A DNA stretch of 64,000 nucleotides, from NCBI GenBank assembly GCA_963833655.1, contig CAWHYL010000003.1:160100-224099 (forward strand), in the 5' to 3' direction. How positions within the stretch are numbered: position 1 is the first letter of the stretch; each line of letters starts with the position of its first letter. The DNA is from an uncultured Actinomycetes bacterium. Lineage in GTDB: Bacteria; Actinomycetota; Thermoleophilia; Gaiellales; Gaiellaceae. Positions 27,310 through 30,300 of the stretch are shown here, in pieces. The notes beneath the pieces were generated by a model. It was given only the letters and a program-made list of their open reading frames with translations, searched no databases and was not told the origin of the DNA. The position numbers and the translations under genes were made by a program.

Positions 27310-30300
27310 CTACTTGTACAACCAGACGCGCATGAGCGACAGGAGCTGGTCGGTGTCGACCGGCTTCGTGATGTAGTCGGAAGCCCCGGCCGCGATCGCC
27401 TTCTCCCGGTCGCCCTTCATCGCCTTGGCCGTGAGCGAGATGATCGGCAGCTGCGCGAACTCGTCGGCGCCCCGGATCAGCCGCGTCGTCTCGTAGCCGT
27501 CGAGCTCGGGCATCATGATGTCCATCAGGACGAGGTCGACGCCCGGCGTGCGCCGGAGCAGCTCGATCCCGTCCTTGCCGTTCTCTGCGTAGAGCACCTC
27601 CATGCCGTGCGCCTCGAGCACGCTGGTCAGCGCGAAGACGTTTCTGACGTCGTCGTCGACGATGAGGATCGTCCGGTCCTTGAAGACCTCCTCCGCCGAA
27701 TGGAGCTGCTCGAGCAGGCGGCGCTTCTCCGGTGGCAGCTTCCGCTCGACCCGGTGGAGGAACAGCGCGGTCTCGTCGAGCAGCCGCTCGGGCGAGCTCG
27801 CGTCCTTCACGACGATCGTGTCAGCGAGCTTGCGGAGCTCGGTCGTCTCGCCCTGCGTCAGCTCCTTGCCGGTGTAGACGATCACGGGCATCTCGGCGAG
27901 CCGCTCGTTCTGCTTGATCTCGTCGAGCAGGTCGAGGCCGCTGCGCCCCTGCAGCTTCAGGTCGACGACCATGCAGTCGAAGTGCTGCAGCTGCAGCACC
28001 TCGACCGCCTCGTCGCTCGTCGCGACCGCCGTGACCTCGACGTCGTCGCCGCCGCCGATCAGCTCGATCAGCGCGTGGCGCTCCCCTTCGTCGTCCTCGA
28101 CGACCAGGAGTCGCTTCACCTCGCGGTCGATGAATGCCCGGATCGCGCCGAACGTGTCCTCCAGCCCCTCCTTGGACACCGGCTTCTCGACGAACGCGAC
28201 GGCGCCCGCGCGCAGCGCGTTCTGACGGCCGTCGCCCGCGGAGACGATGTGCACCGGGATGTGGCGCGTGTCCGGGTGCTGCTTCAGCCGCTCGAGCACG
28301 TGCCAGCCGTCCATCACCGGCAGCCGCATGTCGAGGATGATCGCGTCCGGCTTGAACTCGTGCGCGAGCGCAAGCCCCGCGTCGCCGCGCAGCGCGACGA
28401 TGCCCTTGAAGCCGCGTTCGCGCGCGACGTCGAGCTCCGTCCGCGCCGTCTCGGGATCGTCCTCGACGATCAGCACGACGCGATCGCCCTGCTGGATGTC
28501 GTCGCGGTCGTCGCGCACGTCGCTGGGGAGGAGCAGCGCCGGGTCGAGCTCGCGCTCGTCCGCCGCCGCCGGCGCGCCGTTGCCTTCGCCGCCGCCGGTG
28601 AAGACGATCTCCTCGGCGTCTGCGGCCTCGCGCGGCTTCACCTCGACCGACTGGAACGTCGCCGGCAGGAAGAGCGTGAACGTGCTGCCTTCGCCGGGCT
28701 TGCTCTCGACGTGAATCTCGCCCCCGAGGAGCCTTGCGATCTCGCGGCTGATCGAGAGGCCGAGGCCCGTCCCGCCGTAGCGGCGGCTCGTCGTGCCGTC
28801 GGCCTGCTGGAACGCCTCGAAGATCAGGCGCAGCTTGTCGTGCGCGATGCCGACACCGGTGTCGCTGACGGCGAACTCCAGCACGGTCTCCGCGCGCGAC
28901 AGTGCCTCGCTCGCGAACTGGCGGCCTTCGGCGACGCCGATGCGGAGCCTGACGCCGCCCTGCTCCGTGAACTTGAACGCGTTCGACAGCAGGTTCTTCA
29001 GCACCTGTTGCAAGCGCTGCTCGTCGGTCTCGATCGCGGGCGGGACGTTCGCGCCGTGGATGTCGACCTCGAAGTCGAGGCCCTTGTCCTCGGAGATCGG
29101 GTGGAACGAGCGCTCGACGAAGTCGCGAAGGTCGGAGAGCTTCACGTCGCCGACGTTCACGTCCATGCGGCCGGCCTCGACCTTCGAGAGATCGAGGATG
29201 TCGTTGATCAGTTCGAGCAGGTCCGAGCCGGCGCTGTAGATCGTGTCGGCGAACTCGATCTGCTTCGGTGTCAGGTTCTCGTCGGGATCCTCCGCGAGCA
29301 GCTTCGCCAGGATCAGCAGCGAGTTGAGCGGTGTGCGCAGCTCGTGCGACATGTTCGCGAGGAACTCGGACTTGTAGCGTGACGAGAGCGCGAGCTGCTC
29401 GGCCTTCTCCTCGAGCGCGGCGCGCGCGAGCTCGATCTCGCGGTTCTTGATCTCGATCCGGCGGTTCTGCTCCTCGAGCAGCTGCGCCTTCTCCTCCAGC
29501 TCTTCGTTCGTCTGCTGCAGCTCTTCCTGCTGCGTCTGCAGCAGCTCCTCCGATGCCTTGAGCGACGCGGCCTGCTCCTCGAGCTCCTTGTTCGTCTGCT
29601 GCAGCTCCTCCTGCTGCGCCTGCAGCTCCTCGGACTGGCTCTGCAGCTCCTGCGTGAGCTCCTGCGATTGCTCCAGCAGCTCCTCCGTGCGCATGTTCGC
29701 CTGGATGGTGTTCAGGACGACGCCGATCGATTCGGCGAGCTGCTCGAGGAACGTCTGCTGGATCGGTGTGAAGCGCTGGAACGACCCCAGCTCGACGACG
29801 GCCATGACCTGCTCCTCGAACAGGACGGGGAGGACGATCACGTTGACCGGGGCTGCCTCACCGAGGCCGGAGGTGATGCGGACGTAGTCCTCGGGCGCCT
29901 GCGTGAGCAGAATCGGTTTCAGCTCGAGCGCAGACTGGCCGACGAGCCCTTCGCCGATCTTGAACGCCGTCGGCACGTTCTTCCGTTGCTTGTAGCCGTA
30001 CGACGAGATCAGGCGGAGCTCGAACTCGTCGCCCTCGCCGTCCGGCGACTCCATCATGAAGAACGCCCCGTGCTGCGCGCCGACGAGCGGCGTCAGCTCC
30101 GACATGATCAGGCGCGAGACCGTCTCGAGGTCGCGCTCGCCCTGGAGCAGCCCGGTGAAGCGCGCCATATTCGAGTTGAGCCAGTCCTGCTCCTGGTTCG
30201 TGCGCGTCGTCTCCGCGAGGTTCGTGATCATCTGGTTGATCGTGTTCTTGAGCTCGGCGACCTCGCCCTGCGCCTCGACGGCGATGGAGCGGGTGAGATC

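Follow-up and report, generated by a model that had tools for sequence, protein, structure and literature searches.

The window analyzed here, a 64,000-nucleotide stretch of contig CAWHYL010000003.1 from an uncultured actinomycete of the family Gaiellaceae, encodes on its minus strand a large hybrid histidine kinase of the RsbK type (1690 aa; 27310–32382), and the subject of this analysis is a Glu/Gln-rich helical tract within that protein that is a candidate site of methylation. From its N terminus, the kinase contains about seven pairs of HAMP and HAMP_2 domains, a GAF domain (residues 749–890), the tract itself, HisKA (1004–1071) and HATPase_c (1119–1241) domains, and three receiver (REC) domains, the last of which spans residues 1572–1683 (Pfam). 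Downstream on the same strand, and separated from the kinase and from one another by gaps of no more than 5 nt, are three further genes. The first, which begins 5 nt past the kinase stop codon, encodes a CheR methyltransferase of the RsbM type (283 aa; 26453–27304), and abutting it is a gene for the catalytic domain of a CheB methylesterase that is devoid of a REC domain (189 aa; 25883–26452). The third encodes a second kinase with the domain order REC-PAS-GAF-PAS-HisKA-HATPase (23511–25883), which is a conserved partner of the tract-bearing kinase with or without CheR and CheB. Beyond it are genes for a lone REC domain, another kinase and a cyclase-REC-LuxR protein. The arrangement described in the initial annotation, in which the tract sits on a separate kinase beside CheR and CheB, is therefore the one found. 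The solved structures closest to the window CheR are those of chemotaxis CheR enzymes (5FTW, 1AF7 and 1BC5), which align across the full catalytic domain, and the Ser/His/Asp triad of CheB aligns with those of 1CHD and 3SFT; judging from these alignments, both enzymes look catalytically intact.

The tract comprises residues 897–1001 of the kinase (29380–29694, minus strand) and consists of 15 unbroken heptads, with the register counted back from the H-box (SHELRTP). The phospho-accepting histidine of this box, His1013 (29344–29346, minus strand), lies 12 residues past the end of the tract. The Glu/Gln-rich peptide that first drew attention to the locus is encoded exactly, between the GAF and HisKA domains. 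Leu or Ile occupies position d in 13 of the 15 heptads, position a is filled by polar or small residues that include four Asn, and the segment as a whole holds 28 acidic and 10 basic residues along with 19 Gln. The tract begins MRTEELL, carries the heptad EELQQTN twice, and holds two units of 28 aa, or four heptads each, which correspond to residues 918–945 (unit 1; 29548–29631, minus strand) and 946–973 (unit 2; 29464–29547, minus strand). An AlphaFold2 (AF2) model of the monomer, built with 24 homologues, is helical over residues 873–955 and 965–1031, with one low-confidence fold-back at residues 954–966; this break is treated as an artefact that arises when only one chain of a dimeric coiled coil is modeled, rather than as a hinge. 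The nearest solved structure over part of the tract is 7Z8N, with a similarity that is generic to histidine kinases.

The two units are also visible in the DNA as a direct repeat, noted in the initial annotation, whose copies begin at 29503 and 29587 and are spaced 84 nt apart, equivalent to 28 aa or four heptads. The best extended pair (29472–29547 and 29556–29631) is 82% identical over 76 nt and overlies a 21-nt periodicity in the tract. Such a repeat could in principle matter as DNA, either as the trace of a recent duplication or as a substrate for recombination or slippage, and the number of 28-aa units among related kinases, which ranges from one to five (five in P0198), shows that units have been gained or lost, plausibly by unequal recombination between repeats. 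However, when the tract is compared with itself at an offset of 28 residues, 18 of 28 residues are identical, 15 of these 18 use the same codon, and the kinase gene draws on GAG for 91% of its Glu codons and on CAG for 93% of its Gln codons. The nucleotide identity is thus as predicted from the protein repeat and the codon bias, and because these account for it fully, the 84-nt repeat has no separate meaning. Nor is it a recent duplication, since relatives in many phyla carry both units as well; among more than 100 Gaiellaceae relatives, moreover, the tract is 96–100% identical and displays no length polymorphism. A role for the repeat at the level of DNA is accordingly scarcely credible.

The experimentally studied counterpart of this kinase and its CheR is the RsbK-RsbM pair of Bacillus cereus. 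RsbK has the architecture CHASE3-HAMP-GAF-S-helix-HK-CA-REC, in which the S-helix is the signaling helix, and carries H505, N625 and D827 (Chen et al. 2015, PLoS One; PMC4574943); it has been tied to CheR-type methyltransferases (PMC12848376), and RsbM is the methyltransferase encoded in its operon (PMC4574943). An RsbK orthologue was picked from a sample of Bacillales genomes by its length of 896 aa, by the residues H505, N625 and D827, and by the synteny rsbV-rsbW-sigB-orf4-rsbY. Its alignment with the window kinase extends from the HAMP region through the last REC domain (blastp, E=1e-126), and the terminal REC domains of the two proteins are 51% identical. The RsbK orthologue is followed by a 285-aa CheR gene, RsbM, whose product shares 50.5% identity with the window CheR (E=1e-108). 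When the window CheR is compared with two genomes of the B. cereus group, RsbM is likewise its best match (51%), with the chemotaxis CheR much lower at 27–28%.

The correspondence extends to the tract itself. The S-helix of RsbK contains 11 heptads, beginning MRIQTLL, HESQAMT, EELQVQS, EELQTQA, EELQMQA, EELRTTN, EQLESRT, and heptad tables anchored at the H-box place its EEL heptads and those of the window tract in the same register. Because the registers match, the window tract can be described as the RsbK S-helix plus one 28-aa unit (15 versus 11 heptads), with unit 2 representing the additional four heptads. Both kinases also present their GAF domain, S-helix, HisKA, HATPase and terminal REC domain in the same order, and both are followed directly, within the same operon, by a gene of the CheR type. 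The differences lie around this core. The sensor of the window kinase is a soluble poly-HAMP array, whereas that of RsbK is CHASE3-HAMP; the window kinase has three REC domains, whereas RsbK has one; and the window CheR is accompanied by a dedicated REC-less CheB, whereas RsbM is an orphan. The downstream partner also differs, being a REC-PAS-GAF-PAS kinase in the window and the RsbY phosphatase with the sigma-B module in B. cereus. No RsbY-like gene was found among the genes downstream of the window kinase, but its absence concerns the B. cereus pathway rather than the methylatable helix, because the output module is a feature of that pathway. Finally, the host of the window kinase, unlike B. 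cereus, has no chemotaxis genes.

In B. cereus, RsbK becomes methylated by RsbM on its S-helix in vitro, as followed with 14C-labeled S-adenosylmethionine (PMC4574943), and this modification is restated in two other reports (PMC9912610; PMC12848376). Methylation and the inhibitory C-terminal REC domain are both needed to hold RsbK and sigma-B off, B. cereus contains no cognate methylesterase, and 127 RsbK-like kinases have been counted across 10 phyla (PMC4574943). By analogy, it is very probably on the window tract that the RsbM-type CheR, whose gene begins 5 nt past that of the kinase, places methyl groups, and in this lineage the REC-less CheB probably takes them off the same segment. The earlier suggestion that the tract serves as a substrate of the neighboring CheR and CheB thus gains support from orthology to a studied pair. 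Viewed in this way, the tract is ordinary in kind, being an RsbK-type methylatable S-helix and hence a candidate methylation site with precedent; the features specific to the lineage are the paired CheB, the longer helix, the poly-HAMP sensor and a host without chemotaxis genes.

The last of these features bears on what the two enzymes could modify. The host genome (3.42 Mb; 98% complete) contains neither a match above the Pfam cut-off to MCPsignal, the profile of methyl-accepting chemotaxis proteins (MCPs), nor a CheW domain, from which it follows that CheA is missing as well. In a genome without MCPs and CheW, CheR and CheB need a substrate that is not a chemoreceptor. There are two CheR domains in the genome, that of the window and that of a CheR-PAS protein on another contig (C6), and a genome-wide search with the pattern [EQ]EL..[ST]N[EKDQ][ED]L finds only two matching open frames, the window kinase and this same CheR-PAS protein. 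Each of the two sets of methylation enzymes in the host is therefore without a classical substrate, yet linked to an EEL...N tract.

The CheR-PAS protein (G000:C6:38021-40489) contains at least six heptads of the EELxSxN type, and its tract is 48% identical to that of the window kinase (tblastn, E=7.7e-6), so that the alignment proposed in the initial annotation does reveal similarity. Beyond this one protein, a tract of the type EELQ-x-[ST]-NEEL is present in 11 of 12 CheR fusion open reading frames (ORFs) sampled from the class, which bears out the statement in the initial annotation that such fusions carry the motif; its position was misjudged, however, as it follows a PAS domain rather than the CheR domain. 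CheB-CheR-PAS and CheR-PAS fusions thus resemble the window system in the EEL...N heptad motif and in the association with CheR or CheB, and differ from it in several respects. All of their heptads are EELxSxN, with five to seven in a row, and their tract is flanked on both sides by PAS domains and belongs to the enzyme's own chain, whereas that of the window lies between GAF and HisKA on a separate kinase. In addition, the CheR domain of the C6 fusion shares only 30% identity with that of the window. No publication that tests the fusion tracts for methylation was found, and keyword searches of the literature on CheR, histidine-kinase methylation and CheBR fusions yielded nothing relevant. The surroundings of the C6 protein (G000:C6:37449-41478, outside the window) form a second methylation system without MCPs in the same genome, comprising a CheB whose C terminus carries a zinc-ribbon and coiled coil, the CheR-PAS-(EELQSTN/EELETTN)-PAS protein with six to seven such repeats, and then a histidine kinase.

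Related kinases are numerous. A search with the tract returns 1564 representative clusters at E<=1e-3, and members of the family share the GAF domain, the Glu/Gln heptad tract, HATPase and REC domains while differing in their N-terminal sensors, which may be poly-HAMP arrays, membrane sensors with HAMP, or PAS domains. Among the best 80 loci of related kinases, drawn from many phyla (L004-L083), the last GAF strand and the H-box are separated by a distance (d) of 86, 93, 100, 107, 121, 128 or 135 residues, with one locus at 101; save for this single locus, the distances differ by whole heptads. At loci of Gemmatimonadota, Cyanobacteria, Bacillota, Bacteroidota and Pseudomonas, and of Moraxellaceae, Bdellovibrionota, Syntrophobacteraceae and Solirubrobacteraceae, the kinase is directly followed by a CheR 45–70% identical to that of the window. 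CheB is present as well at 13 kinases (12 related loci and that of the window), and solely where the helix is among the longer ones (d>=121 in 13 of 13); Bacillota and some other loci have CheR without CheB. Segment 23511–27304 of the window was compared with loci L010, L011, L012, L013, L016, L084 and L085; at loci that contain neither enzyme, a second kinase that begins with a REC domain directly follows the S-helix kinase. Because this orthologue of the second kinase takes up the adjacent position where both enzymes are missing, CheR and CheB can be regarded as an optional cassette within a conserved kinase-kinase pair.

Kinase and CheR also go together in Bacillales. In a sample of 251 genomes (G301-G551), 67 contain the kinase tract, the identical 67 contain an RsbM-type CheR (E<=1e-40), and the other 184 carry neither. 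At the listed positions, which cover several genomes, kinase and CheR are 1–2 kb apart on the same strand, and where a genome has two kinases it mostly has two CheRs as well. Most of the 67 kinases appear to be of RsbK length, with open frames of about 900 aa and matches split in two. A further association, that two 28-aa units predict linkage to CheR, was considered and dropped as an effect of sampling or clade. Among the best 80 loci, CheR follows about 16 of the 25 kinases with two units and 2 of the 55 with one, and this correlation is not claimed because RsbK itself has one-unit length (d=107) and always occurs with RsbM.

Sequence conservation also points to particular residues within the helix. 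In alignment A1 of the tract, the invariant glutamates are those directly ahead of the core Leu. In heptads of the form xxLxxxN, an acidic residue (Glu or Asp) precedes this Leu in each of the 39 heptads of the 20 CheR-linked kinases, whereas 22 of the 59 unlinked kinases have Ala, Lys or Arg there in one heptad or more; Fisher's test, which takes no account of shared ancestry, gives p=9e-4, or p=4e-4 among two-unit kinases alone. The residues of the window kinase that occupy this position in its EEL heptads, where they would be solvent-exposed, are Glu919 (29626-29628), Glu926 (29605–29607), Glu954 (29521-29523) and Glu961 (29500-29502), all on the minus strand; their columns are among the invariant ones of A1, and they are the likely methyl acceptors. 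Glu926, for example, is the second Glu of QQEEL in unit 1, at heptad position c and preceding the core Leu, and the other three are putative equivalent sites. The methylation sites of RsbK, reportedly E439 and E446 (Chen et al. 2012, Environ Microbiol 14:2788), correspond in the orthologue exactly to the second Glu of two EEL heptads.

The same position distinguishes the tract from the adaptation helices of chemoreceptors. It had been proposed that its paired Glu and Gln residues are methylated by CheR and deamidated by CheB, and a stronger form of this proposal would make the tract a true homologue of an MCP adaptation helix, transplanted from a chemoreceptor and modified as in Tar and Tsr. 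Several likenesses are genuine: both are acidic coiled-coil surfaces on which enzymes of the CheR and CheB families act, the second residue of the Glu pair is the conserved position in both, and charge neutralization is the presumed physical effect. The tract also contains one half-site, EEQAAS (residues 935-940), which fits the pattern [EQ][EQ]xx[ASTG][ASTG], and the related CheR-PAS tract of contig C6 gives a weak match to MCPsignal of about 20 bits. That match, however, ranks amid more than 200 coiled-coil families with comparable scores; it was judged to be generic coiled-coil noise, and kinship with MCPs on this basis was rejected. In hmmscan the kinase tract itself matches generic coiled-coil families only, and MCPsignal is missing from the 25 best of its 33 listed families. 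The full consensus [ASTG][ASTG]xx[EQ][EQ]xx[ASTG][ASTG] is absent from the tract and from the whole kinase, as judged by pattern search, and comparison with MCP methylation helices thus disclosed no specific similarity.

Structural considerations lead to the same conclusion. Hydrophobic residues are placed differently around the EE pair than in MCPs, in that Leu follows the pair in the window, and the window helix is two-stranded and runs straight into the dimerization and histidine-phosphotransfer (DHp) domain, whereas MCPs form a hairpin that assembles into an antiparallel four-helix bundle. Gln, moreover, is absent from the candidate acceptor position (0 of 39 heptads of the CheR-linked kinases) and from the candidate sites of the window kinase, which leaves the proposed deamidation by CheB without support at these positions. 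Homology to an MCP adaptation helix is therefore largely refuted and very improbable. Neither missing feature is peculiar to the window, as the S-helix of RsbK, whose methylation is experimental, likewise has no full MCP consensus and no specific match to MCPsignal.

A more substantial alternative is that the tract is a structural signaling helix only, a rigid transmitter between GAF and DHp, and that CheR and CheB modify something else, such as the second kinase, a receiver domain or the HAMP array. As in generic S-helices, the tract is a continuous heptad coiled coil between a sensor domain and DHp and has an RT-E-L start; Glu/Gln-rich heptads are common in coiled coils at large, consistent with the generic families returned by hmmscan. 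The second kinase is linked to the first as tightly as CheR is, and the tract remains intact in many kinases that have no CheR nearby and in two genomes that have none at all. On the other hand, it is on this very helix that the CheR homologue of B. cereus methylates its kinase, in a system that has no second kinase (PMC4574943). Across the family, it is the N-terminal sensors that vary, while GAF, S-helix and HK stay constant, and the candidate acceptor Glu is strictly retained only where CheR is linked. The helix of the window is also unlike generic S-helices in its dimensions and its company: a typical S-helix is roughly 40 aa long, whereas this one has 105 aa, is built of 28-aa units (one to five in the family) and is linked to modifying enzymes. 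A purely structural role is on balance unlikely, although it carries more weight than either of the other alternatives.

The reading preferred here, that the tract is the S-helix of an RsbK-type kinase, accepts methyl groups from the adjacent RsbM-type CheR and is probably demethylated by CheB, is in its entirety likely, and it has to be set against several observations that weigh against it. The tract shows no specific match to the MCP methylation consensus or to the MCPsignal profile. The statistic on acceptor conservation ignores phylogenetic non-independence, with about eight independent losses counted. Because B. cereus has no cognate esterase, the role assigned to CheB is without experimental precedent in the family. 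Two Gaiellaceae genomes, G187 and G152, keep a two-unit tract that is 81–83% identical to that of the window (loci L084 and L085; G187:C1:138612-138923 and G152:C27:32573-32884), within an open kinase frame that measures about 2360 aa from stop to stop, and yet have no CheR anywhere in the assembly, which suggests that the modifying enzymes were lost recently. CheR is also missing from many relatives with one unit, those of Streptomyces being an example. Since the tract is kept in genomes that lack the enzyme, the helix must have a primary role as a signal transmitter that is independent of methylation.

Such a role can be combined with methylation. The tract would form a parallel dimeric coiled coil that relays a conformational signal from the poly-HAMP and GAF sensor region into the DHp helix bearing His1013. 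Methylation would neutralize the charge of this helix, which amounts to about -18 net per chain, and the neutralization would alter the packing or rotation of the coiled coil and, through it, the output of the kinase. That the window kinase is methylated, at exactly which residues, with what part played by CheB and with which direction of change in output, is inferred.

It is possible, though rather less than probable, that the EEL-heptad helix represents a portable, MCP-independent methyl-accepting module. Reversibly modified by a dedicated CheR and CheB in this non-chemotactic actinobacterium, it might endow a histidine-kinase phosphorelay with true sensory adaptation, a form of memory, with the extra 28-aa unit adding acceptor sites and widening the range of adaptation; in the CheB-CheR-PAS fusions the module would be self-modified. 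The RsbK-RsbM pair of B. cereus does not have such adaptation, because it has no esterase. If methylation is indeed reversible, adaptation in the style of a receptor would act directly on a two-component kinase. More broadly, the preferred reading would bring a very large and mostly unannotated family of kinases, together with their linked CheR and CheB, under one experimentally grounded mechanism, the methylation of a signaling helix. The CheR and CheB genes of genomes without chemoreceptors should then not be labeled chemotaxis genes. Four residues, Glu919, 926, 954 and 961, offer themselves as concrete targets for mutagenesis.

The N-terminal portion of the kinase has structural relatives of its own. 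Residues 11–309 (31456–32352, minus strand), within the poly-HAMP array, match the structures 9TRK and 9TRJ with E=1e-106. These entries represent a histidine kinase fused to GCN4, so that a close relative of the HAMP array of the window kinase has already been crystallized.

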